11,963 nucleotides of DNA from a virus. Under the pieces are notes generated by a model, which was not told the origin of the DNA, did no database searches, and saw only the letters and a program-made list of their open reading frames with translations. The stretch is from UHGV virus genome UHGV-0046228. The stretch is one strand, 5' to 3'. Both the position numbers and the translations under genes were made by a program. Positions 1 to 10,131 of this stretch are shown here, in pieces (positions within the stretch are counted from its first letter, which is position 1; the number at the start of each line of letters is the position of its first letter).

Positions 1-385
1 CCGGAACAGCACCGGGGTTCGGCGTCTTCAGCGTGGTCGAGCTGGCAAAAGCACCGGAGCCAACGTTATAGGTGAAGGAGTAAAGCGCGGCGCGGGTTGG
101 CTCAGGGATGCGAACCTTGATCAGCGGGTCGATGGCGCTTGCCACCTTTCGCAGATCTGCCTTAAGCAGGTTGTCACACTCTTTGTCGGTATATCGGTGA
201 CCGCGGCGAATGTCGGTACCAGTGTGCCCATCGCAAACGGTCCAGACGCCGACCACATCCTGATAGGCGTAATAACGCCGACCTTCGAGTCCATCCGCAT
301 TGCCCAGCATTACTGCAGCAATGGTGATGGCTCCGGACCCGCCAACGATGGCACCCACCAGCTTATTCCTCAACGTTGGGTTCAT
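1..385 (-). CDS. SAR endolysin (signal-anchor-release lysozyme, phage 21 R-like), N-terminal 128 codons; C-terminus lies beyond the window start
   Basis: Manual reverse-complement translation from ATG at 385..383: [128 protein letters not shown]. Gly/Ala-rich weakly hydrophobic N-terminal SAR-like segment followed by a lysozyme-like E...D/C...T core; start overlaps the upstream holin by 23 nt in another frame. Absent from the ORF track because no stop lies inside the window. Confidence 0.85.
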
Positions 386-587
386 CTCGGCTCCTGCTGC
401 GGCGGTTGTCTTCGCGGATTTTGAAATAGAGATTTGTCAGATACGTCATTACGGCAATGATGATACCCACCAGCACGCCGATAGCGTTCCACTGCTCGGG
501 GCTGTAGGCATTAAGCATGCCGTTTAGGATGCTCCCGGCTGAAGCGCCATAGGCAGCACCAGTGGTTAGTTTGTCCATGCGATACAT
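363..587 (-). CDS. Class II holin (pinholin, phage 21 S-like) with dual-start motif
   Basis: 74-aa [22 protein letters not shown]...[15 protein letters not shown]; begins Met-Tyr-Arg-Met (two starts separated by a basic residue), two hydrophobic segments, charged C-terminal tail; SD GAGGTGA upstream; immediately precedes the SAR endolysin. Confidence 0.85.
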
Positions 588-621
588 ACTCTCACCTCGC
601 TTTGTGCGAGTGCTGTTGCTA

Positions 622-650
622 GGAATAAAAAAGGCCGCCGAACGGCAGCC
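622..650 (-). terminator. Intrinsic terminator-like hairpin about 35 nt upstream of the holin start
   Basis: Minus-strand reading GGCTGCC-GTTC-GGCGGCC followed by TTTTTTATT; 7-bp GC-rich stem with one G-U pair. Confidence 0.5.
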
Positions 651-848
651 TTGTATTGATTGATAGTTTCCGGAGCTTCTTTCTCGCTAGGAAAGCAAAA
701 AATTAAACAATCCTTAAGAATAGCCAGTTGATGCAAAAAATAATTAGCTTTTCAAATAGTTTTTAGCTGTTACCATTTCCACTAAGTTATGGCTTTACCT
801 CTTTGTGGATAAAAGAAAGACAAGCGGGTATGAGATTGAGTCGTTATT

Positions 849-883
849 GCGGAGAGGGGTGATGTCGTTCTCCGCGTTTTTTT
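849..883 (+). terminator. Plus-strand intrinsic terminator-like hairpin within the Q-to-holin intergenic region
   Basis: GCGGAGA (849-855), 13-nt loop, TCTCCGC (869-875), then G plus seven T (877-883). On the minus strand no U-run follows, so it is orientation-specific for plus-strand transcription. Confidence 0.45.
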
Positions 884-910
884 GGCTCGAAGCGATTTAG
901 GCCACAAAGA

Positions 911-942
911 AATAAAAAAAGCCCAAGGCGTTAACCTCGGGC
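911..942 (-). terminator. tR'-like intrinsic terminator downstream of the late promoter
   Basis: Minus-strand reading GCCCGAGG-loop-CCTTGGGC (8-bp stem with one G-U pair) followed by TTTTTTTATTTCTTT; about 120 nt downstream of the Q stop. Confidence 0.6.
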
Positions 943-959
943 TTGAATTTTTTTGGCTT

Positions 960-1065
960 CGGAACGACTGAACGGATTCCCAGCGTTAGAGATGAATCTA
1001 TCCAGTTTTTCCGCGAAATGCAATACCTATTTCCTATATATTTTCAACATTAGGGAAAATTATTT
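960..1065 (-). promoter_or_regulatory. Inferred late promoter (pR'-like) and Q-utilisation region
   Basis: AT-rich non-coding stretch between the Q stop (1066-1068) and the tR'-like terminator; minus strand has TTGAAA (1047..1042) and adjacent TATATA (1040..1035), but no clean -35/17 bp/-10 pair was found. Placement rests on position. Confidence 0.35.
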
Positions 1066-1875
1066 TCATCTCGTTACTTTTGAGAGAATGGAATCAGCCA
1101 TAGACTCCTGTTTATGGCATTCGGCGACCAACTCCTCAAATAGCGGCTGAAGTTGCTCATATGCCGCCGTTTTCTTTATCTCCGCAACAGTATTAACGCC
1201 CTCAATTACCGTTGAGAACTTAAGCCTGGCGTAACCTCTACCACCGCAGCGGTCGCAGGCTTTCATTACTGGAACGCCCTGGCGATCGCTTTCTGCCTTG
1301 TCCAGCACCTTACCTTTGCCATGGCAGCGACACGAATTGCTGATAACGCCTTTTCCGTTACACGGCTTGCACTTAACTCGCACCACCTCACGCGCCTGTG
1401 TCCAGCTCTCCCAGTCGCTTGGGCGAACGGCACGCGACATTTTCGACCAGTAAGGCGGTTTCCCCCATGGGTATGAGACCTTGTTGGTAAACACTTGCGC
1501 CTCTGTAAATCCGCCACCATCACAGCAATCACATTTTCGAGTGCTGGCAGCACTTCTTGAATAATCCTGGTATGCAAAAGCGCAGAGAACCTTAAGCACG
1601 CCTGACCGAGCTGATTCATCGAGTTCAGACAGTGCTCTGAATTTACCTGATAACTTACGTGCCTGCTCATAGAGTCTCTCCAGTGCTATATCTGGGCTGC
1701 TAATGCCGATTTTCGAGAGGTAAAGATCGAAACCAAACCCGCACTTGTGGCCAGCAAGGCCAAGCGCCGCCATAACGTCAGTGCCGGTGAGACTGTCTGA
1801 TGCGGTTGCGCGAGGAGAGTCACTGAACATCGGTGATTTAGGCGCAAAGTATTTAGCGATTGATTCGAGGTTCAT
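1066..1875 (-). CDS. Late-gene antiterminator Q-like protein
   Basis: 269-aa ORF directly upstream of the late promoter/terminator and lysis genes and downstream of nin genes; C-terminal half carries paired Cys motifs (KCKPCNGKG...CRCHGKG, CDRCGGRG) typical of Zn-binding Q-family antiterminators. Family assignment is from recall. Confidence 0.7.
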   Translation of the reverse strand: MNLESIAKYFAPKSPMFSDSPRATASDSLTGTDVMAALGLAGHKCGFGFDLYLSKIGISSPDIALERLYEQARKLSGKFRALSELDESARSGVLKVLCAFAYQDYSRSAASTRKCDCCDGGGFTEAQVFTNKVSYPWGKPPYWSKMSRAVRPSDWESWTQAREVVRVKCKPCNGKGVISNSCRCHGKGKVLDKAESDRQGVPVMKACDRCGGRGYARLKFSTVIEGVNTVAEIKKTAAYEQLQPLFEELVAECHKQESMADSILSKVTR

Positions 1876-1991
1876 TATGCGGCTTCCTTCTGTGGCTGGT
1901 GGGTTTTGGTCTGGCTGTGCTTTACTATTGGCGGCATGCTGGCGCGCTTAACGCTTTCGGCCTGGTATCGGGTTATCTCGTCTCTGGTCAT
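1875..1991 (-). CDS. Small hypothetical protein (38 aa), translationally coupled between lar and Q
   Basis: Manual translation MTRDEITRYQAESVKRASMPPIVKHSQTKTHQPQKEAA; ATG at 1991..1989 preceded by GGAGG with a 6-nt spacer; ATGA overlap with the Lar stop and TAATG overlap with the Q start. Not in the ORF track (below size cutoff). Confidence 0.4.
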   Translation of the reverse strand: MTRDEITRYQAESVKRASMPPIVKHSQTKTHQPQKEAA

Positions 1992-2194
1992 GATGGCCTC
2001 CGATTCCAGGCGCGAATTGCATCGCGCTTTGTTGGATAGGTGTCAGTTATCGGCTTAATCAAGCATTGCTTTGTTGAACAACCGGCGTAGACACCATCAC
2101 CATCAGAAAAAAGTTCTGCGCCGCCGCCACAGAACGGACACTCAAGCAGAAAAGCCCAATGAGGTAGCTTGAGATCGAATATCATTGGTTTCAT
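1988..2194 (-). CDS. Lar-family restriction alleviation protein (anti-restriction)
   Basis: 68-aa ORF with CPFCGG...AGCSTKQC zinc-ribbon-like cysteine pairs and C-terminal AIRAWNRR, matching my recollection of Lar/RalR-family proteins of Rac-type prophages; ATGA overlap with the ninG stop. Confidence 0.55.
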   Translation of the reverse strand: MKPMIFDLKLPHWAFLLECPFCGGGAELFSDGDGVYAGCSTKQCLIKPITDTYPTKRDAIRAWNRRPS

Positions 2195-2832
2195 GCTGCC
2201 TCCCGCTGTTTCAGTGCTTTGAGCTTGTCGCGGTACTCATCCCGGATCCGGATGAAGTCTTCACGGCGGTAGTTGGTCATTTCGTGGGGGCCGTTGAGCC
2301 AGTCGACGTATCCCTGACCGTAACGAGCGACCAACCCAGCTTCGTATTGCTGCGCCACGGTCGCCTCTTTGGCGGTGTACTTGCCAGCTCCGGCATTACA
2401 GGATTTGCACTGCTTATGGGCGTTGCGTTCTTCAAAGCGCAGTTCAGGGTAAGCACCTACTGTCTTGAAATGGCCGCAATCCCACTGGCCACCATGCAGA
2501 TCAGGCGGATTGGTCTCGCCGCAGCTGATGCATGGCAAATCGGCGTCGCGCGCACGGATAAAGGCGTTGAAAGCTTTCTGAGCCTGAGCCTTGTAGTGTC
2601 CGTCTGGCCTGAGCTCGTCCAGCCGCTCCGTGCGGCGTTTGCGCCCGTCCTTCTCAGCCTCGTTTTGCTCCTTGATGCGCTTAGCCGCGTCTTTCACCTT
2701 CTCCTTCTTGCGTTCTTCCATTGCGAGGATTGCGCCGTGTTCCGGGCAGCACCAGCGGATCCGGATGTCGTGGAATTTCGGCACGAAGTATTCACCGCAT
2801 ACTTTGCACTTACGGCGGGATGGTTTACGCAT
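2191..2832 (-). CDS. ninG: NinG (Rap) recombination-associated protein
   Basis: Translation from the internal Met ([16 protein letters not shown]...) parallels lambda NinG as I recall it ([17 protein letters not shown], ERNxHKQC motifs). The track start at 2910 would overlap the upstream phosphatase by 85 nt, so ATG 2832..2830 is preferred. Confidence 0.85.
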
Positions 2833-3493
2833 GGGCACCACCTTGAACCTGTACCAGCGTGAGGCTTCCGCAGAACACGGCCCCCGTATCCATGTACATC
2901 TGGTTGGCATACTTCAGGGGCTGGCGCGCAGGGGTGTGGCCGAAGATAAACAGATCAGCACCAGCTATCGGCGAGACAATGCCGTCCTGAGCGTCGCTAA
3001 CCCGTTCACGATTCCAGATGACCATGTCTTTCGGGACCGGCTTGTCGAACGCATATTCGTTATGCGGGTAGTCAGCGTGGCAGATAACGATTTTACGTTC
3101 AGCGGTAACCAGCTCGATGACGAATGGCAGGCTGGCCGATTTATGAACCAGAGCCTTAGCCAGCACCTCTTTGTCATAGTCGAGATTGAAGAACCAACCG
3201 CCACCGTTTACCAGCCAGTGATTGACGTTCCCATACTCCGATAGCCCATCAATCATCATCTGCTCATGGTTTCCGCGCACCGCCCGGAACCACGGCATAG
3301 TAATAAGCTCCAGGCACTCGACGTTTTCCGCGCCGCGGTCAACAAGGTCACCAACCGATATCAGCAAATCATGCGCCGGGTCGAACGAAACTTTTTCGAG
3401 CTCATTCATCAGCAGCGTGTAGCACCCATGCAGATCGCCGACGACGAAGATATTGCGCCAGTCAGCGCCATTAATGCGTTGATACATGCTCAT
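2825..3493 (-). CDS. Serine/threonine protein phosphatase (lambda PPase / NinI-like metallophosphatase)
   Basis: Metallophosphatase motifs GDLHG, GDLVDRG, GNHE and strong co-linearity with lambda PPase ([35 protein letters not shown]). Start taken at ATG 3493..3491 (MSMYQRING...) with AGGAG 9 nt upstream; ATGA overlap with the ninE stop. Confidence 0.9.
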
Positions 3494-3660
3494 GCGGATT
3501 TTCTCCTCGCTGCGAGACGCAGCCATTTCTGATCCACCAGGCGGGCGGTGTAATCTTTCAGGGTCGGAATGTCGGACGGCTTAATCGCTGGCTTACGCTT
3601 GCGGCGCACCGGAACGCGGAAGATTTCGTTTGTGATGACGCGAGCGAGAGGGCTAGCCAT
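3490..3660 (-). CDS. ninE: NinE-like small basic protein (56 aa)
   Basis: Manual translation [56 protein letters not shown]; resembles my recollection of NinE of lambda/DLP12 (RKRKP...WLR...ARR); TAATG overlap with the ninB stop. Not in the ORF track. Confidence 0.6.
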
Positions 3661-4097
3661 TACGCAACCCTCCCGAAGTAATCACCTGAGTAGCGAACTT
3701 CACGGAGTTGCACGCCGTTTTGCACAGCAAATGCCTGGCTGTATTCGATGAGACTGGTCATGCGACGGATGCCCATCTTCGCAGTGCTTTCCCGGATGGC
3801 GCAGAACTCCCCTTCCAGACCCGGCACCACTTCACCAGGCTTACCGGTGGCAATGGCATGGCCTGAGACATACAGGACTTTCCATGAAGCGAGGTCGCGC
3901 GACTTGCCAGCCCATTGCAATTGCTTCGCTGTATCGCCACAGAGAGCGTGGAAGAGGTCGTTTTGGGCGAGAGTGCGGTCAGCCTCAGAAAACTTCACCA
4001 CGAGCGGCAGAGCGTCGTTAACGGGCAGCTTCCTGATGTAGTCGATGAGGTTATCGCGAACGCGTTCGTCGCGGAGGTAGAAAACAGGCTGTTTCAT
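3660..4097 (-). CDS. ninB: NinB (Orf) recombination mediator
   Basis: Translation from internal Met (MKQPVFYLRDE...) is 145 aa and co-linear with lambda NinB as recalled (QN..L...GD......W.G, SWK core); GGAGGTGG SD 6 nt upstream of ATG 4097..4095. Confidence 0.85.
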   Translation of the reverse strand: MKQPVFYLRDERVRDNLIDYIRKLPVNDALPLVVKFSEADRTLAQNDLFHALCGDTAKQLQWAGKSRDLASWKVLYVSGHAIATGKPGEVVPGLEGEFCAIRESTAKMGIRRMTSLIEYSQAFAVQNGVQLREVRYSGDYFGRVA

Positions 4098-4129
4098 ACG
4101 CCACCTCCGAGAGGTAACGCAGAATACAG

Positions 4130-4243
4130 AAAATCGCAGGTGCATTTCTGCATCTGTGACAAGGTGAGAAGTTCATATTGTGGTCGCATTTAAGTCCCCT
4201 TAAATGCGAAGAAGTCTGCCAGGGTTGTTCAGGCCGCTGGCAG
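4130..4243 (-). other. Structured RNA element: three consecutive hairpins ending in a U-rich tract (tR2-like terminator, leader or small RNA)
   Basis: Minus strand: TCTGCCAG-14 nt loop-CTGGCAGA; CGCATTTAAG-GGGA-CTTAAATGCG (10-bp perfect stem); CAGATGCA-GAAA-TGCACCTG (GNRA-type loop) followed by CGATTTTCTGTATTCTG. Confidence 0.35.
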
Positions 4244-4247
4244 ATTT

Positions 4248-4276
4248 ATTATGGCTCGTTGATAGTGTTTTATCAA
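4248..4276 (-). promoter_or_regulatory. Candidate sigma70 promoter upstream of the hairpin element and ninB
   Basis: Minus strand TTGATA (4276..4271), 17-nt spacer AAACACTATCAACGAGC, CATAAT (4253..4248). Confidence 0.45.
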
Positions 4277-4317
4277 ACGTTGCTTGACGTTTAGTTATGC
4301 GTCGAATGGGTTCTGCA

Positions 4318-5070
4318 TCACTTCACCTTCCACTGCGGTGCTGCTGCAATCATCGCGCGGTATGCAGCCTGCATGTCGTTGTCATCATCGTCTGTGTACG
4401 GAGCCGAATCCCATGCTGCACGCATATCCGGAGTAAGCTCAACCGGCACCATCACCCAACCATCAGGAATCACCGGAGAGTTGCCACCCTGAACAGTAGG
4501 CATATCCGGACCTTTGCGAATCGCCCTGGCAAGATCGATTTGGTCGTCGTACAACCAGTCACCTGTTTGCGGATGATTGGCTTCTGCCAATTGTGCAGCC
4601 CACTCCAGGCCGTCTTTGTGTCCTTGCAGATAGTCCAGCGGTAACTCATCACTATTACTTACAGGTTCGGCCTGAAGCATGGCGGCGCGATAGGCGTTCC
4701 AGCCGACAGCTTTTCCGTGTTCAAACGCGCTGTCAAAGTCATCATCAATTTCCATCGCAGCGGGCACAGATACCGGCGCTGGCGGGGCGGTGTAGAGCGG
4801 CATTACCTCAATATTGAAGATATCCCCCTCGCTTGGACACGCCTCTGCGCTACCGTAAACCCAAGGGTGAACGACTCCGTTACGCTTGTTGATTAATCTG
4901 TGCGCCCACGCCACAGGCTCCGCTTCGAGCGATGCCAGCGCGATACGCGCATTATTAATCAGGAGGCTATCAGCAGGAGATAAAACAACATGAGCGTTAC
5001 CCTCCGCATCAATTTCAGAATTCGTAATTTTTCTGAACAGCTTTGCCAGTTCTCTGGTAATAGTGCTCAT
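4318..5070 (-). CDS. Hypothetical phage protein (250 aa), acidic
   Basis: Long ORF with ATG at 5070..5068, GGAG 8 nt upstream, ATGA overlap with the upstream ORF stop; acidic runs (EIDDDFD, YTDDDDNDM); no family recognised. Confidence 0.7.
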   Translation of the reverse strand: MSTITRELAKLFRKITNSEIDAEGNAHVVLSPADSLLINNARIALASLEAEPVAWAHRLINKRNGVVHPWVYGSAEACPSEGDIFNIEVMPLYTAPPAPVSVPAAMEIDDDFDSAFEHGKAVGWNAYRAAMLQAEPVSNSDELPLDYLQGHKDGLEWAAQLAEANHPQTGDWLYDDQIDLARAIRKGPDMPTVQGGNSPVIPDGWVMVPVELTPDMRAAWDSAPYTDDDDNDMQAAYRAMIAAAPQWKVK

Positions 5071-5345
5071 GGGCGAATCTCCGTCCTGCCACCAAGTAAG
5101 CGGATTGCCACTCGTTCCCGGAAGGTAAGCGGTCGATGGTGTCCGCGGGCATTAACAATTTCAGGCTTTCCATTAGGCGGATAATTGACCCTGACCGATT
5201 GACCATCTAGCGCGTGAGAAGCCTCGAGTAGTGCTGACTTTAAGTGCGCAGGGCACTCTTTCTGCACCCGCTCGCCGTCTGAAATGACACCTGCAATCCC
5301 CTGAAGCATGCTGGCTAAATTGCTGAGATAATTTTTCACATTCAC
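5067..5345 (-). CDS. Hypothetical protein (about 90 aa); start uncertain
   Basis: ORF-track start at 5345 is a GTG only 1 nt after AAGGAG; GTG at 5339..5337 has better spacing (7 nt). Stop overlaps the start of the 250-aa ORF (ATGA). Confidence 0.5.
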   Translation of the reverse strand: MNVKNYLSNLASMLQGIAGVISDGERVQKECPAHLKSALLEASHALDGQSVRVNYPPNGKPEIVNARGHHRPLTFRERVAIRLLGGRTEIRP

Positions 5346-5692
5346 TCTCCTTTACCGGTGCCATAGGCAGATAAGCACTCTTCAAATCCAGCCTGATTAT
5401 CCGTTTGACCTAAACTGAAGCCATGCTGAAGACCATGACGAAATGCGCTATCTTGCAATTTATCTGCGCTATCGAGCTTCGCTTCCAGTTCAGCAATCCG
5501 CTCCTCATACCGAGCGCCAACGGAAACGGCTTTATGGAAGGCTTCGCACCATTTGGACGATTGCGCCTGCATCTTCTCCAGCTCATCCAGCAGCTCCAGC
5601 ACGTCGCGAGTGGGAACCATGAAGTTCGGAATGAAGTTATCTTTCGCTTTCTCTGCTGTTAGGCGCAGCGCCTGTTTGTCGATGTTGCTCAT
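5342..5692 (-). CDS. Hypothetical protein (116 aa) with central coiled-coil-like segment
   Basis: ATG 5692..5690 overlapping the stop of the upstream ORF (ATGA); charged heptad-like region ERIAELEAKLDSADKLQD; no family recognised. Confidence 0.6.
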   Translation of the reverse strand: MSNIDKQALRLTAEKAKDNFIPNFMVPTRDVLELLDELEKMQAQSSKWCEAFHKAVSVGARYEERIAELEAKLDSADKLQDSAFRHGLQHGFSLGQTDNQAGFEECLSAYGTGKGE

Positions 5693-5949
5693 TGGGCGGC
5701 TCCTTCTGTGCGATACATCATGATTGTCAGATCGCCTTTAGTCGCCAGGCGCACCGTTGTTCCTGGTTCGATGCTGGACAGGTCAAACGCATCGTAAAAT
5801 TCGTTTACTGCCTTCTGTCTACGAGATAGCTTTCTACGCTTATCCCACTGCTTTAGCGCAATGGAGATAAACCACTGGCCCGTTTTGAACATGATGAATA
5901 ACCACCCCATCAGAGCGAGACCAGTGTTTAGAATGTCCAGAATGCTCAT
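5689..5949 (-). CDS. Hypothetical small membrane protein (86 aa)
   Basis: ATG 5949..5947 with AAGGAG 7 nt upstream; N-terminal hydrophobic span LALMGWLFIMF followed by a basic stretch. Confidence 0.6.
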   Translation of the reverse strand: MSILDILNTGLALMGWLFIMFKTGQWFISIALKQWDKRRKLSRRQKAVNEFYDAFDLSSIEPGTTVRLATKGDLTIMMYRTEGAAQ

Positions 5950-6041
5950 GACTGCACTCCTTTGCGAAGCTGTGCGGCGATGTCTTCGAGTACTCCATCA
6001 GCGAAGGAGCGATCAAAATCCCCCTCTGGCGCATCAGCCAT
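5946..6041 (-). CDS. Small acidic hypothetical protein (31 aa), translationally coupled
   Basis: Manual translation MADAPEGDFDRSFADGVLEDIAAQLRKGVQS; stop TGA overlaps the ATG of the 86-aa ORF (TCATGA); no obvious SD, so it rests on coupling only. Confidence 0.3.
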   Translation of the reverse strand: MADAPEGDFDRSFADGVLEDIAAQLRKGVQS

Positions 6042-6044
6042 AAA

Positions 6045-6569
6045 CTATGTAGATGTGAGAATCATCCGTGCGATGTCTGCCGAGATCTTCGCAGTATCAT
6101 CAATAAAACCAGCTTCCCAGGCAGCCAGCATTCTGTTAGACACAAAGTAAGCGCCCTCCTTGCGTGCTTCAGTCTTCACTTCAGCCAAGAAAGCGTCGGT
6201 GGCTGTGGTTCGCGGCATCCTTCCATCTATTGCGCAGATATACGCATCAGATAGTTCACCCTGCTCGCCGTCAAACACGTAGCAACTCTGTACGATAAAT
6301 TTATTCAGCCCCGCATTCTCCGCCGCCAGCTCCCTGCACTTGCTCTCGGCGTTAGCGAGCTGTACTGCCATGTCTGTGACTTCGGCTTCAAGTTTTTCAG
6401 CATATTCAATCAGGAGATCGATTCTTTCCGGCGTTACGGTTTTAACGTATTTGCAAATCGATGACGCATAATTATCATCCTGGAGTGTGCCAGCCAGGCC
6501 ATTACAAAATTTGCGGTTCCCTTTTGTCGCCTTGATATCGGCGATGATTTTTTTAACATCTGGTTTCAT
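6045..6569 (-). CDS. Hypothetical phage protein (174 aa) with coiled-coil-like centre
   Basis: Preferred start ATG 6569..6567 (MKPDVKKIIADIK...) making an ATGA overlap with the ren stop; the track's longer N-terminus would overlap ren. Confidence 0.6.
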   Translation of the reverse strand: MKPDVKKIIADIKATKGNRKFCNGLAGTLQDDNYASSICKYVKTVTPERIDLLIEYAEKLEAEVTDMAVQLANAESKCRELAAENAGLNKFIVQSCYVFDGEQGELSDAYICAIDGRMPRTTATDAFLAEVKTEARKEGAYFVSNRMLAAWEAGFIDDTAKISADIARMILTST

Positions 6570-6865
6570 GCTGACACCCTCCCGTAAAACGCCAGTACAC
6601 GCTGCATCGCCGGACTGTTTCGGCACTCCTGAAATATTCCGTTGGTGCAGCTACGCGCGGTACCAGCCTGCTCTTCCGGCGTAGCCAGGCGATAAGTCAC
6701 CGTTCGCCAGACCTTGCTCACCCGGATAATTTTTCGAGACTTTTCCAGATCGATAGCGTTCTTCGTGATGCAGTTGATGGTCATGCCGCACTCTGTGGCC
6801 ACATCCTTCGCGGTGAAGGTCCGGTGCGTTTCGAGATAACGCAGAATTGCCTGCTTGCCTTTCAT
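6566..6865 (-). CDS. ren: Ren-like protein (lambda Ren, resistance to Rex exclusion)
   Basis: 99-aa translation MKGKQAILRYLETHRTFTAKDVA...KVWRTVTYRLATPEE...FQECRNSPAMQRVLAFYG is co-linear with lambda Ren as recalled; ATGA overlap with the P stop; sits directly after P as in lambda. Confidence 0.8.
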   Translation of the reverse strand: MKGKQAILRYLETHRTFTAKDVATECGMTINCITKNAIDLEKSRKIIRVSKVWRTVTYRLATPEEQAGTARSCTNGIFQECRNSPAMQRVLAFYGRVSA

Positions 6866-7656
6866 TGAATAAGCCCTCTCTCTTTCCCGCGCTGATACTC
6901 TTCCCAAAGCCATTGGGCCGGGGTGAGAGCGCCGAGAGTCGCCGCATTTGGCATGCACCCGAAGCTTTTTCCTTCCGGGTGATAACCGGCCTGACGGCTC
7001 ACGTGATTTGTCGGGATCACTTCATCAGAATTCTCGAGCGCCAGGACGGGGGATGGTATTTTTTCCCCACCAGCAACTTTCAGCGCCCATTCCTCAAGTT
7101 TTTTTGACGCGTATTTTTCAGTTTCAGCCTCGCTCAGCTGGCGCTGGTACATCGCTCTGCGCGTATCGGTCACAATCCAGTACATGACGTCATGAGACCA
7201 CGGGAAAGCTTCTGCTCCGCCGGTATGCAGCCCTTTTTCGCGGCTATACCGATGGAACTCATTCATCACATCAGCCAGGCCAATGCCAAGTACCGTGCCG
7301 CTATCCTTGCACCATTTGATGAATTGCCCCGGAGAAGGCCAGAAGGGTGATTCACTGGCGCGGGCATGCCGTACACCTGCGGAAAGTTGTTCGCGGGTGC
7401 GGATCCCATTCTCTGAAAACGCTGCGATCCACTGACGCTTTGCCGTTTTCTCGTCTGCGTCAGTTTTCAGGTTTGTCTGCGTAGACGCAGGGAAAATCTG
7501 CTTCAGCTGCCGAAAGAGAGAATCAACGAGGCTTTCCGCTTCGGGATTTATTACCTTCTGCTGGTCGGCGTTTCCGTTAGCCATTCTGGATAGCAGTGCC
7601 CCGTCACGCCCGTTAACTGCCTGCACAAGTTGGTTATTCACAGGAAGTCCTCCCAT
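6862..7656 (-). CDS. P: Replication protein P (DnaB helicase loader)
   Basis: 264 aa, co-linear with lambda P as recalled (FPAS, RRQWIAAFSENGIRTREQ, PFWPSPGQFIKWC, YWIVT); start overlaps the 3' end of the O-like gene. Confidence 0.9.
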   Translation of the reverse strand: MGGLPVNNQLVQAVNGRDGALLSRMANGNADQQKVINPEAESLVDSLFRQLKQIFPASTQTNLKTDADEKTAKRQWIAAFSENGIRTREQLSAGVRHARASESPFWPSPGQFIKWCKDSGTVLGIGLADVMNEFHRYSREKGLHTGGAEAFPWSHDVMYWIVTDTRRAMYQRQLSEAETEKYASKKLEEWALKVAGGEKIPSPVLALENSDEVIPTNHVSRQAGYHPEGKSFGCMPNAATLGALTPAQWLWEEYQRGKERGLIQ

Positions 7657-8372
7657 CCCTCGCGGCTGTTCCAGTGAGGCGTTTCCTGCTCAGCACGTCC
7701 ACGTTTAGCCAGCGGGTTAACCCTGGCATTCCGGATCCAGACTCTGAAAGCCGAATTCCAGTCGATTAGCTGCGTGCCACGGGAAAGGTGATAGTCCCGG
7801 AAGTTCAGCAGCTCAGTTTCAATGCTCACCCCCTTCTCGGCAGCCATAGCAATGTGATCTGCCGACGGCTTAAACAGGGGCGGGAATGGAATCTCCCCGT
7901 TTGGTGAAATCCCGATCCGCCGCTTAGCGGCTTCGCTCATAAAACCATCGCGCCCAGAGAGAGAGTTAGGTTCAGTGACTGGTTCAAAAGAGTGACTGGT
8001 TCTGGTGCCATCTGGTGGCACAGGGGGTGTGCAATCAGATGGCATAGGGTGTGCTTCTTCGTGGCATACCCCTGTGCAATTTAATGGCATAGGGGTGGCA
8101 TCTAATTTCAGGTAATACACATTTGACGTGTTACCTTTTCCGTTGTTGACGCCAACACGGTTCTCACGCCTGATAAGCCCCATTTCTTCAAGCGCATCAA
8201 TATGGTTACGAACAGCCGTTCTGCTGCATTCGCATTGGTCGGCGATATGTTGATACGAAGGCCAGCATTCGCCTTTATCGTTGGCGTTATCGGCCAACTT
8301 AATCAGGACGAGCTTACGCAGTGAGTTTCCCACTTTGACCCCCATTGCTTTCGCCATAAGTGACATGCTCAC
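7638..8372 (-). CDS. Replication initiator, O-like (N-terminal winged-HTH, ori iterons in the coding sequence, C-terminal P-interaction-like domain)
   Basis: 244-aa ORF; N-terminal HTH-like segment (SRTAVRNHIDALEEMGLIRRE); iteron repeats fall in a Pro/Thr-rich linker; followed by P. GTG at 8372 with GGAGGT 5 nt upstream, alternative ATG at 8366. Confidence 0.8.
   Translation of the reverse strand: MSMSLMAKAMGVKVGNSLRKLVLIKLADNANDKGECWPSYQHIADQCECSRTAVRNHIDALEEMGLIRRENRVGVNNGKGNTSNVYYLKLDATPMPLNCTGVCHEEAHPMPSDCTPPVPPDGTRTSHSFEPVTEPNSLSGRDGFMSEAAKRRIGISPNGEIPFPPLFKPSADHIAMAAEKGVSIETELLNFRDYHLSRGTQLIDWNSAFRVWIRNARVNPLAKRGRAEQETPHWNSREGWEDFL
8003..8100. repeat. Origin-of-replication iterons inside the O-like gene
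   Basis: Four related units spaced about 22 bp: TGGCACAGGGGGTGTGC, TGGCATAGGGTGTGC, TGGCATACCCCTGTGC, TGGCATAGGGGTGGCA, preceded by inverted repeat GTGCCA...TGGCAC and flanked by an AT-rich tract (8101-8130). Confidence 0.6.
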
Positions 8373-8389
8373 GTGCTACCTCCGGTTTG

Positions 8390-8418
8390 TTTACTCTCTT
8401 CGATTTACTTGGCATAAT
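8390..8418 (+). promoter_or_regulatory. Candidate promoter for an OOP-like antisense RNA
   Basis: Plus strand TTTACT (8390-8395), 17-nt spacer, CATAAT (8413-8418), in the intergenic region between the YdaT-like gene and the O-like gene, pointing opposite to them. Confidence 0.3.
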
Positions 8419-8423
8419 TGCCT

Positions 8424-8500
8424 CGCAATTGACTGACGTTTATTGCACCAGAAAGCTGTTGGTGTTCGAGCACCACAGCTTTCGCCATTTCTGTTGTTCT
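8424..8500 (+). ncRNA. Candidate OOP-like short antisense RNA (about 70 nt)
   Basis: Predicted start about 7 nt after CATAAT; ends at a 13-bp hairpin (GAAAGCTGTTGGTG / CACCACAGCTTTC, 8451-8483, one bulged T, 6-nt loop) followed by T-rich GCCATTTCTGTTGTTCTC, abutting the YdaT-like stop. Confidence 0.3.
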
Positions 8501-9042
8501 CACATAACCCCCAGCATCGATGTCACCATCGTCATCAGCGGCCCTACCTGCTCCGGCATGAGGCGAAACAATGACGCTATGCCCTCGCTTACCTCCTTCA
8601 TTTTCTGGTGCTCAGGCGCGTTCAGGAGAACGGCTTGCTTTGCTTCTGAACATTCCTTCATGGCAGATGCGATCAGCGACATGGTGTCGTTCTGCTGCGC
8701 CAGGCGTGTACGAAACTCAACAGGAAGAACAGACATGATTGCCGGGGTCAGTTCTCTAACGTTCTCGCGGTACTGATCGGAGTCGACGCGGTTATCCAGA
8801 AAGCGCAAAGGATTCTGGCGAGCCCTGCTGATGTCTTGCAGGAAGCTGACGGCGGTACCGCCCTGCTCCCGGTATTCGTTGATGATCAGCGCTGACACTA
8901 CGTCCTGATTGTCCAGGGACGACGACCATGCACGGACCGCATCGCGGATTTTGTCGTGACCTGGCTCCGCCTTAGGTTGAGCGCGGTTTATCATCGCTCC
9001 CGGGTGTATTCCGGTATTGTGTTGATACGCAAGTGAATGCAT
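8500..9042 (-). CDS. YdaT-like protein (Rac-type; occupies the CII position)
   Basis: 180-aa ORF downstream of the cro-like gene; segment IINEYREQGG...ELTPAIMSVLPVEFRTRL parallels E. coli YdaT as recalled; AAGGGA SD 5 nt upstream of ATG 9042..9040. Confidence 0.65.
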   Translation of the reverse strand: MHSLAYQHNTGIHPGAMINRAQPKAEPGHDKIRDAVRAWSSSLDNQDVVSALIINEYREQGGTAVSFLQDISRARQNPLRFLDNRVDSDQYRENVRELTPAIMSVLPVEFRTRLAQQNDTMSLIASAMKECSEAKQAVLLNAPEHQKMKEVSEGIASLFRLMPEQVGPLMTMVTSMLGVM

Positions 9043-9072
9043 TGCTTTCCCTTTCGTGGTTAGAGCCGCCGG

Positions 9073-9294
9073 TTAGGCGGCAAAGATACCTGGATATAGA
9101 ACTTCGCGAGGAAGTCCGGTTACTTCTTCGTATTTACGCATTTTTGTTACTGGAAGGCTGCCACCTCGCTTTTTAAGCATATTGATGGCCTGAGGCGTTA
9201 CGCCGACCTTTTCAGCAAGCACCTTTTGAGAGCCGCCCACTGCATTAATGGCTTTCTCAAGCGGGGTGCTGGCGTTGGATTTTTTGTTGATCAT
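9073..9294 (-). CDS. Cro-like DNA-binding protein (YdaS / Cro-CI HTH family)
   Basis: 73-aa ORF with HTH segment GGSQKVLAEKVGVTPQAINMLKKRG; divergent from the repressor gene; GGAGC SD 5 nt upstream. Confidence 0.8.
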   Translation of the reverse strand: MINKKSNASTPLEKAINAVGGSQKVLAEKVGVTPQAINMLKKRGGSLPVTKMRKYEEVTGLPREVLYPGIFAA

Positions 9295-9314
9295 GTTTTG
9301 CTCCGCTCATGTGT

Positions 9315-9386
9315 AATCAACACCATGTTAATTCATGGCGTGGATTAAATCAACATTATGGTGATGGAAAAAATCCACATGTTGTT
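9315..9386. promoter_or_regulatory. Divergent operator/promoter region (OR-like) between cro-like and cI genes
   Basis: Three related sites: AATCAACAccaTGTTAATT (9315-9333), AATCAACAttaTGGTGAT (9348-9365), AATCCACAtgTTGTTT (9372-9387). Candidate pR on the minus strand: TTGATT (9353..9348), 17 nt, TAACAT (9330..9325), overlapping sites 2 and 1. Confidence 0.5.
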
Positions 9387-9411
9387 TACCATGCATGGAG
9401 CGGAGGGTTTT

Positions 9412-10131
9412 ATGAGCAGCATTTCTGAAAGAATTAAATTTTTACTGGCAAGGGAAGGCTTGAAGCAGCGGGATTTGGCTGAGGCTTTGTCGACTAGCCC
9501 ACAGACCGTCAACAACTGGATAAAAAGAGACGCGTTAAGTCGTGAGGCGGCGCAACAAATATCTGAAAAATTCGGTTATTCTCTTGACTGGTTATTAAAT
9601 GGAGAGGGTTCTCCAAAGAAGGATCTGGAGAGCAACATCCCGCCAGAGTCTGAGTGGGGAACTGTCGACGCTTGGGACAAAAATACCCCCCTACCTGACG
9701 ATGAGGTGGAAGTACCGTTTCTGAAGGATATCGAGTTTGCGTGTGGTGATGGGCGTGTTCATAGCGAAGATCATAACGGCTTTAAACTGAGGTTCTCCAA
9801 GGCAACGCTTCGCCGGGTAGGAGCTAACACAGATGGGTCTGGCGTTCTGTGTTTCCCGGCAACCGGTGACAGCATGGAGCCAATGATTCCAGATGGAACC
9901 ACTGTGGCTGTGGATACAAATAACAAACGCGTTGTCGATGGAAAACTTTACGCTATTGGACAAGGCGATGGTGGTGAAGGGCAACTAAAAAGAATTAAGC
10001 AGCTCTACAGGAAACCAGGCGGAAAGCTAATTATCCGCAGCTACAACAATGAGGCCTACCCTGATGAAGAAGCTGACATTGATGATGTTGAGATAATCGG
10101 CCGCCTCTTCTGGTACTCGGTATTGCTGTAG
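9412..10131 (+). CDS. CI-type prophage repressor (N-terminal HTH, C-terminal S24 LexA-like autopeptidase)
   Basis: Start at ATG 9412 (MSSISERIKF...) with GGAGG 5 nt upstream; HTH LKQRDLAEALSTSPQTVNNWIKR; S24 catalytic motifs GDSMEP (Ser) and LKRIK (Lys). Confidence 0.9.
   Translation: MSSISERIKFLLAREGLKQRDLAEALSTSPQTVNNWIKRDALSREAAQQISEKFGYSLDWLLNGEGSPKKDLESNIPPESEWGTVDAWDKNTPLPDDEVEVPFLKDIEFACGDGRVHSEDHNGFKLRFSKATLRRVGANTDGSGVLCFPATGDSMEPMIPDGTTVAVDTNNKRVVDGKLYAIGQGDGGEGQLKRIKQLYRKPGGKLIIRSYNNEAYPDEEADIDDVEIIGRLFWYSVLL

Follow-up and report, generated by a model that had tools for sequence, protein, structure and literature searches.

A conserved promoter and four-hairpin leader ahead of ninB in lambdoid prophages: a candidate translated attenuator at the entry to the nin genes

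We analyzed a stretch of 11,963 nucleotides (nt) of virus genome UHGV-0046228, hereafter the window, which represents a lambdoid prophage of phi80 immunity. The block of interest is transcribed from the minus strand, in the order cro, cII, O, P, several small uncharacterised genes, a gene of 250 amino acids (aa), a 220-nt gap, NinB, NinE, NinI, Rap, Lar, Q and holin. The subject of this report is the gap before ninB and its homologue between ybcM and ybcN in the DLP12 prophage of Escherichia coli K-12. The original prediction, made from the sequence alone, had treated the whole gap as one element with a promoter and three hairpins, and had proposed that it was an equivalent of the lambda terminator tR2, an internal promoter for the nin-Q block or an independent small RNA. 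Positions 4098-4276 (minus strand) proved to form a conserved module, while 4277-4317 do not belong to it, and an open reading frame (ORF) of 31 codons (4189-4094) had been overlooked. The features of the locus are as follows.

5070-4318, minus strand: 250-aa gene with no assigned function.
4259-4276, either strand: palindrome TTGATA-N6-TATCAA over the -35 hexamer and spacer, a possible operator.
4271-4276, minus strand: -35 hexamer TTGATA; TTGAT is more than 90% conserved, and its first base is the first conserved base of the module.
4248-4253, minus strand: -10 hexamer CATAAT; ATAAT is nearly invariant in 128 aligned unique promoters.
About 4241, minus strand: predicted transcription start, 7 nt past the -10 hexamer, placed from the K-12 homologue.
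4215-4244, minus strand: hairpin 1, 5'-terminal, with the conserved loop CCUGAACAA; -15.1 kcal/mol, z -3.8.
4210-4214, minus strand: start of a linker with consensus GACUUCUGCGC, more than 90% conserved; the consensus covers the last bases of hairpin 1 and the first of hairpin 2.
4184-4209, minus strand: hairpin 2; -14.6 kcal/mol, z -6.5.
4094-4189, minus strand: leader ORF of 31 codons (MRPQYELLTLSQMQKCTCDFLYSALPLGGGV), homologue of K-12 ylcH; its TGA overlaps the ninB ATG (AUGA).
4161-4183, minus strand: variable, G-poor and C/A-rich spacer within the leader ORF; sequence and amino acids differ by lineage, and the length stays in frame.
4133-4160, minus strand: hairpin 3, with a GNRA tetraloop and the core CAGAUGCA-GAAA-UGCACCUG at 4156-4137; conserved more strongly than any other part of the element.
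4121-4133, minus strand: U-rich tract AUUUUCUGUAUUCUG after hairpin 3, terminator-like in a simple scan; homology to phi80 stops at 4121.
4098-4120, minus strand: hairpin 4, which hides the ninB Shine-Dalgarno sequence (GGAGG, 4107-4103); -13.7 kcal/mol.
3660-4097, minus strand: ninB/orf, 145 aa, the gene served by the leader (Pfam NinB, E=5.5e-39; PHROG 72).

The promoter, TTGATA-17-CATAAT, matches the sigma-70 consensus at 10 of 12 positions with a 17-nt spacer. Taken alone, this match is not significant, because shuffled sequences yield a mean of 1.1 such promoters in 1.6 kilobases (kb), so that one is also expected by chance. Its conservation is another matter. Across 128 unique variants the -35 hexamer, the 17-nt spacing and the -10 hexamer are all retained next to unrelated upstream sequence. 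The share of the commonest base rises from 0.32 over the 60 nt upstream to 0.82 in the promoter and 0.83 in the leader, and falls to 0.62 in the following gene. Some loci carry an unrelated extended -10 promoter (TGTTATAAT) in the identical place. In the K-12 homologue, Kim et al. 2012 (PLoS Genet, Table S1) mapped a transcription start at NC_000913.2:571542 with 247 reads, a count comparable to those of talB or carA in the same table; this position lies 7 nt after CATAAT and 49 nt before ylcH. Given the conservation and the mapped start, we count the near-consensus minus-strand promoter at 4276-4248 as real, as originally proposed. By homology with K-12, transcription in the window would begin about 7 nt beyond CATAAT, at the base of hairpin 1.

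The module, of about 180-190 base pairs (bp), is present in phi80, HK639 and the DLP12 prophage. Of 5426 complete E. coli genomes, 1204 match its promoter-to-start-codon part, with identities of 76-99%, and exact-motif scans located more than 150 further loci in viral contigs and in genomes of Enterobacter, Citrobacter, Lelliottia, Trabulsiella, Huaxiibacter, Scandinavium and Escherichia. The gap in the window is nearly identical to the one in phi80. Across loci, conservation sets in precisely with the -35 hexamer, and the flanks are unrelated. The gene downstream almost always belongs to the Orf/NinB/YbcN family, in very different subtypes: NinB of the window and YbcN of K-12 share 23% identity. 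All 35 close relatives of NinB carry the element, which is absent from four distant relatives. Rfam returned only noise for the whole window at the gathering threshold and for the region at E<=10, and we found no description of the element in the literature under ylcH, ybcN, nin-region promoter or prophage small RNAs. The element is thus absent from Rfam, and its known annotations are a hypothetical 33-aa protein (ylcH, K-12) and the inverted repeat IR4 of the phi80 record, where hairpin 2 is annotated solely as a repeat.

We then considered the folding of the transcribed strand. The whole 220 nt folds at -70.3 kcal/mol, compared with -46.1 +/- 4.3 for shuffled sequences (z -5.6; 0 of 200 as good), and RNAalifold recovered four helices. 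A covariance model was built and used to align 105 instances; this alignment replaced a first one made with MAFFT, in which hairpin 2 was misaligned and two chance matches were included. Among the 103 distinct sequences used for pair statistics, 96.0% of cells were paired, as opposed to 27-44% when the partners were slid. Both sides had changed in 26 of 33 pairs, against 7-10 in the slid controls, and none of 500 shuffles reached these values, so that the compensatory changes which the original prediction had suggested seeking in related prophages are indeed found. When more than 10 different hairpin-1 stems were folded as single sequences, independently of the model-based alignment, they gave the same structure. 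Since G:U pairs are frequent, we assign the fold to the sense RNA rather than to duplex DNA. The leader RNA therefore folds into four conserved hairpins, one more than originally counted: the three described before are all present, and hairpin 4 (4120-4098) had been missed.

Each hairpin shows its own pattern of constraint. Hairpin 1 occurs with more than 10 stem sequences, all of which pair; 7 of its 7 pairs have changed on both sides, with frequent G:U. Hairpin 2 is the perfect 10-bp stem with a 4-nt loop noticed previously (11 bp if a U:A pair is counted). All 10 of its pairs have changed on both sides (alignment A5), and every stem variant keeps the GGGA loop. The loop region contains the Shine-Dalgarno-like motif GGGGA, and the leader start codon (AUG, 4189-4187) lies in the 3' arm. 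Hairpin 3, the GAAA-loop hairpin followed by the U-rich tract as first described, is nearly invariant. Our first scan of the collection had imposed invariance on its core through the search pattern itself, but the invariance held in two further sets, one selected by a different anchor and one of NinB-anchored loci. The loops found are GAAA, GAGA, GACA and GCAA, all of the GNRA type, and the compensatory changes include CAG..CUG to CCG..CGG, a closing A:U turned into U:A, and a stem rewritten with G:U pairs in L234, the most divergent variant. Hairpin 4 exists in three unrelated sequence versions, all of which pair, and 5 of its 6 pairs have changed on both sides. An alternative fold was also considered, in which the U-rich tract pairs with the 5' arm of hairpin 3 in a 15-bp helix, the lowest-energy fold at -13.1 kcal/mol with the tail. 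A switch between mutually exclusive terminator and antiterminator forms would be predicted from it, yet its covariation was no better than that of shuffles (129 of 500), and the switch was set aside.

The leader ORF begins within hairpin 2 and runs through hairpins 3 and 4 into ninB. Among 147 unique variants, 145 have ATG or GTG at a fixed in-frame distance from hairpin 3, and in 136 the leader stop overlaps the start of the next gene (ATGA or GTGA), before several different genes. Where lineages differ in length, they do so by multiples of 3 in nearly all variants, and L234 still has the leader in frame. Stop-creating substitutions make up 4.6% of the changes that are possible in the leader frame but 1 of 132 observed events (P=0.015), an avoidance absent from the other two frames. 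Synonymous changes, in turn, are not enriched in the leader frame, where their fraction equals expectation, and a functional peptide is therefore unlikely. The N-terminal half is rewritten between lineages (PQSELLTL, TYNPNSLLP, QTTIRTPFNQ, NTKSTSHHL), loop swaps turn QKC into LNG while the stem is retained, and no family in Pfam or NCBIfam matches the peptide. There are no constant regulatory codons either: the peptide varies, and neither L234 nor the loop-swap variants retain its two Cys codons. In most hairpin-2 variants 5-6 nt separate the GGGGA loop from the AUG or GUG that follows it, a Shine-Dalgarno-like spacing. Since the frame is kept open while the peptide is free to change, these comparisons suggest that it is translation in cis, and not the peptide, that matters. 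The spacer between hairpins 2 and 3 is nearly free of G (0 G in 32 nt in the K-12 version), and its composition resembles a Rho loading site.

The K-12 homologue offers information on RNA ends and output. There, ylcH (b4588, 33 aa; L005:7369-7470) is annotated before ybcN, and its stop overlaps the ybcN start. Adams et al. 2021 (Term-seq, supplementary files 1 and 3) list a low-scoring 3' end at 572349/572350 in two conditions, 5-6 nt past hairpin 1 and 98 nt beyond the ybcM stop; the equivalent site in the window is about 4209. Together with the mapped start, from a separate dataset, this suggests an RNA of about 31 nt. No entry for Rho termination was found near the K-12 locus. Downstream, rusA lies 1 kb from the element in the same orientation, and it is normally quiescent, an insertion sequence being required for its expression (PMC1636454). 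As rusA is silent despite a well-used promoter, transcription from the K-12 promoter evidently does not carry far. An internal promoter for the nin block is thus the best supported of the three readings first proposed, on the strength of the conserved hexamers and the mapped start, with the qualification that rusA is quiescent. In PMC8910356 (Table 2), ylcH RNA was raised under microaerobic relative to aerobic growth (log2 2.03), and ybcLM was raised less, which hints that the promoter or the leader is regulated.

The TTGAT-N8-ATCAA palindrome over the promoter possibly represents an operator, judging by its resemblance to one. Its sixth position covaries, TTGATA/TATCAA alternating with TTGATT/AATCAA; in some variants the palindrome is longer (TTGATTTT..AAAATCAA, consensus), and one-sided breaks also occur. 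Two candidate binders were rejected. The phi80 CI half-site AATCAAC is shared, but its orientation is opposite, and the element is also present with other immunities. FNR half-sites match, but their spacing here is N8, not the N4 that the FNR consensus requires.

From these data, we propose that the element is probably a self-contained cassette of promoter and leader at the head of the nin block in lambdoid prophages of the phi80/DLP12/HK639 type, in which a promoter and a translated attenuating leader gate ninB and the other nin genes; to the specific attenuation step we give roughly half of that confidence. The observed parts of this proposal are the promoter, the set of four hairpins, a reading frame that is kept open, the overlap of stop and start codons and the masking of the ribosome-binding site. 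The loop of hairpin 2 would offer the leader its Shine-Dalgarno-like sequence, with the AUG in a weak stem, and would thereby set the rate of leader translation. A ribosome on the leader would melt hairpins 3 and 4, and the melting of hairpin 4 would free the ninB ribosome-binding site, so that the ribosome could terminate and then re-initiate at AUGA by translational coupling. Untranslated transcripts would retain hairpins 3 and 4, leaving ninB silent, and would end early, at hairpin 1, at hairpin 3 with its U-rich tract, or possibly through Rho acting on the G-poor spacer. PMC4824070 includes the statement that ribosomes near a terminator suppress termination. The cassette would thus act as an attenuator that holds the nin genes low despite an active promoter until conditions change, and transcripts reading through from pR, which share the leader, would pass the same gate.

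Several points weigh against this proposal. The covariation was counted in a model-fitted alignment, a procedure biased towards structure. Both the start site and the 3' end stem from the DLP12 homologue, about 78% identical, and none from the window or phi80. The low-scoring 3' end in K-12 could be a decay stop or the end of ybcM read-through. No 3' end is listed after hairpin 3 in the K-12 Term-seq data and the U tract there is poor, for which reasons hairpin 3 as a terminator is a conjecture. Leader translation is predicted, and ribosome-profiling evidence for it was not found. The conserved loop of hairpin 1 has no explanation in the model, and the near-invariance of hairpin 3, which exceeds the needs of a simple hairpin, points to a sequence-specific partner outside it. 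In view of hairpin 3, the hairpin-1 loop and the promoter palindrome, there may be a protein partner, or RNA polymerase may be acted on in the manner of put or nut.

The first alternative is that the element is chiefly a tR2 equivalent, in which transcripts from pR would end at one or more of the hairpins, where the replication genes give way to the nin genes, and an antiterminator (N in phi80) would read through. Its position, between the replication-side genes and ninB, matches lambda tR2, and this part of the original proposal stands. Hairpin 3 with AUUUUCUG scored as terminator-like, the K-12 3' end after hairpin 1, 98 nt past the ybcM stop, could be that of an upstream transcript, and the silence of rusA downstream would also fit. 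Against the rest of that proposal, there is no similarity to the plain GC stem and U run of tR2, no hairpin has a canonical U run, and the K-12 3' end does not follow the GAAA hairpin. Moreover, the terminator scan was equally productive in shuffled sequences, and a conserved promoter, a maintained ORF and a hairpin over a ribosome-binding site would be superfluous for a terminator. The same element also occurs in phages that differ in antitermination, phi80 with N and HK639, which is known to use put RNA, and no nutR-like site was found in the window. Overall, we regard this explanation as unlikely, though the strongest of those competing with the cassette proposal.

A variant on the proposed cassette, to which we assign a somewhat smaller chance than to a tR2 equivalent, is that hairpin 1, possibly together with hairpin 2, acts in cis close to the promoter as put, nut or qut do, either by modifying RNA polymerase or by delivering a factor to it. 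The cassette would then be a second, pR-independent entry point for regulated read-through towards Q. The K-12 RNA of about 31 nt would be the unextended product, and the hairpin-1 loop (CUGAACA) and hairpin 3 would be the recognition sites. An identity of hairpin 1 with boxB was rejected, as the phi80 nutL boxB (CACGUAAACGUG) is unrelated and the window has no nutR-like site.

A free-standing small RNA acting in trans is slightly less plausible again, whether it consists of hairpin 1 alone (about 31 nt) or of about 117 nt ending at the U-rich tract. It would account for an own promoter with a strong start signal in K-12, for the 3' end about 31 nt downstream there, and for the conserved loops (CUGAACA and GNRA), which are possible recognition surfaces. 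The RNA, however, carries a maintained ORF physically coupled to ninB, into which it runs, and on this point the independent RNA of about 100 nt originally suggested fails. The element is also bound to one downstream gene family, the mark of a cis element; no Rfam family, canonical terminator or high Term-seq score supports a discrete RNA, and the loop motifs have neither a second copy nor a complementary sequence elsewhere in the window.

Close behind in our ranking, and likewise improbable, is the view that a small protein of the YlcH family (31-33 aa) is the functional product and that the hairpins have no role of their own. The ORF occupies the position of K-12 ylcH, it has been annotated both in K-12 and by the Prokaryotic Genome Annotation Pipeline (PGAP), and it is kept open behind a Shine-Dalgarno-like motif. 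This view is opposed by the lack of synonymous enrichment and of any protein family match, by the rewriting of the N-terminal half, by loop swaps (QKC to LNG) that preserve the stem, and by a C-terminus that is set by the ribosome-binding site of the next gene. Least probable of all is a DNA-level element, with the inverted repeats serving as protein-binding sites or the whole as a conserved linker for the exchange of lambdoid modules: flanks that are mosaic on both sides, the end of phi80 homology inside the leader at 4121, phages with two copies around an insert and the operator-like promoter palindrome speak for it, but the GNRA loops are retained, the compensated stems contain many G:U pairs, which are A-C mismatches on the other strand and so make sense in RNA only, and a linker role, which may coexist with an RNA function, leaves the structure unaccounted for.

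Other observations concern the surroundings of the element. In some phage contigs (L124, L031, L032, L097, L109, L116, L177 and L132) there are two copies of the cassette, about 2.3 kb apart, with an insert between them. The copies in L124 are at 505-660 and 2968-3123, and the insert encodes ORFs of 147 aa and 241 aa; the leader of the first copy runs into a small hydrophobic ORF (MMSWPKVVATVGAVIVVVVIIAPPICKG). The doubled cassette may be a portable expression unit or a recombination joint. In Enterobacter sp. BIGb0383 (L141:5416-6186) we observed an array of clustered regularly interspaced short palindromic repeats (CRISPR), with 29-nt repeats (CGGTTTATCCCCGCTGGCGCGGGGAACAC), presumably of type I-E, at a 61-nt period. 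One spacer (TTGTCACAGATGCAGAAATGCACCTGCGATTT) is an exact match to the invariant core of hairpin 3, and the host thus targets the most conserved stretch of these prophages.

Around the gap, phi80 DNA matches the window at 99% from within the 250-aa gene to 4121, and the operator region is identical to that of phi80. Positions 4120-4121 are a mosaic joint within the leader: beyond the U-rich tract, the window and phi80 differ in the version of hairpin 4 and in the Orf-family gene, which is NinB in the window and of the YbcN type in phi80. A search of the minus strand of window positions 1-9300 for resemblance to phi80 nut found no nutR-like site downstream of pR. The phi80 record (31500-35400) annotates N and a putative nutL (boxA TGCTTTTTA, boxB CACGTAAACGTG) but no nutR. 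Two terminator-like structures flank Q, one a hairpin with a U run inside lar, upstream of Q, and the other a canonical terminator with an 11-bp stem and U7 about 120 nt past Q, probably the counterpart of tR'. The corresponding features are as follows.

9358-10131, plus strand: cI.
2113-2135, minus strand: terminator-like hairpin and U run inside lar.
1875-1066, minus strand: Q.
919-944, minus strand: canonical terminator past Q.

Roughly one in five complete E. coli genomes carries the cassette, as do prophages of Enterobacter, Citrobacter, Lelliottia, Trabulsiella and others, and it stands at the gate to the nin genes and Q, the timers of the late-expression switch. If our proposal is true, it would account for the silence of rusA and its neighbours despite an active DLP12 promoter, and a translation-gated leader would join the textbook view, in which entry into nin is controlled by terminators and N alone. 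The cassette would also be a compact natural combination of promoter, attenuator and coupler, directly testable in K-12.

Finally, we compared the element with known systems. Lambda tR2 occupies the same place in the early right operon, directly before orf/ninB, and the element possibly likewise limits nin transcription. However, tR2 consists of one GC-rich hairpin and its U run, lies in a gap of 73 bp and comes with neither promoter nor ORF, whereas the element spans about 180 bp with four hairpins, of which hairpins 1, 2 and 4 have no U run and hairpin 3 has AUUUUCUGUAUU after a mismatched stem. The covariance model found nothing at tR2 in lambda, its best score (6.9 bits) lying elsewhere in the locus. 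By these sequence comparisons the element is a positional counterpart of tR2 and not a homologue. The true homologue is the region upstream of ylcH-ybcN in K-12, with the same promoter, hairpins, leader ORF and stop-start overlap; at about 78% identity, it differs in the stems of hairpins 1, 2 and 4, in a degenerate U tract after hairpin 3 and in YbcN as the gene downstream.

In attenuators of the pyrBI type, a ribosome overrides a terminator inside or just after a leader ORF. These share with our prediction a short leader ORF that overlaps a hairpin and a U-rich sequence and whose peptide is unimportant. By this analogy, the element would differ in its weak, putative terminator, in the lack of regulatory codons and in the coupling of the leader to the next gene as well. 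It also resembles systems of translational coupling with a masked ribosome-binding site, in that every version of hairpin 4 covers the ninB Shine-Dalgarno sequence and the genes overlap at AUGA. Unlike in other such systems, the upstream ORF here appears to be made for coupling alone and has a structured initiation site in hairpin 2. A further likeness is to lambda pR'/6S RNA and HK022 putL, where an active promoter is followed at once by stem-loops; in K-12, a short terminated or paused product is suggested here too. The description of HK022 putL gives two stem-loops in about 70 nt, which begin directly downstream of the promoter (PMC9378689); counted from +1, hairpins 1 and 2 together cover about 60 nt. 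The put stems have bulges and a triplex, whereas the hairpins here are plain and have no Rfam match. No antiterminator is known to act on the element, which lies before the nin genes and not at pL, pR or pR'.

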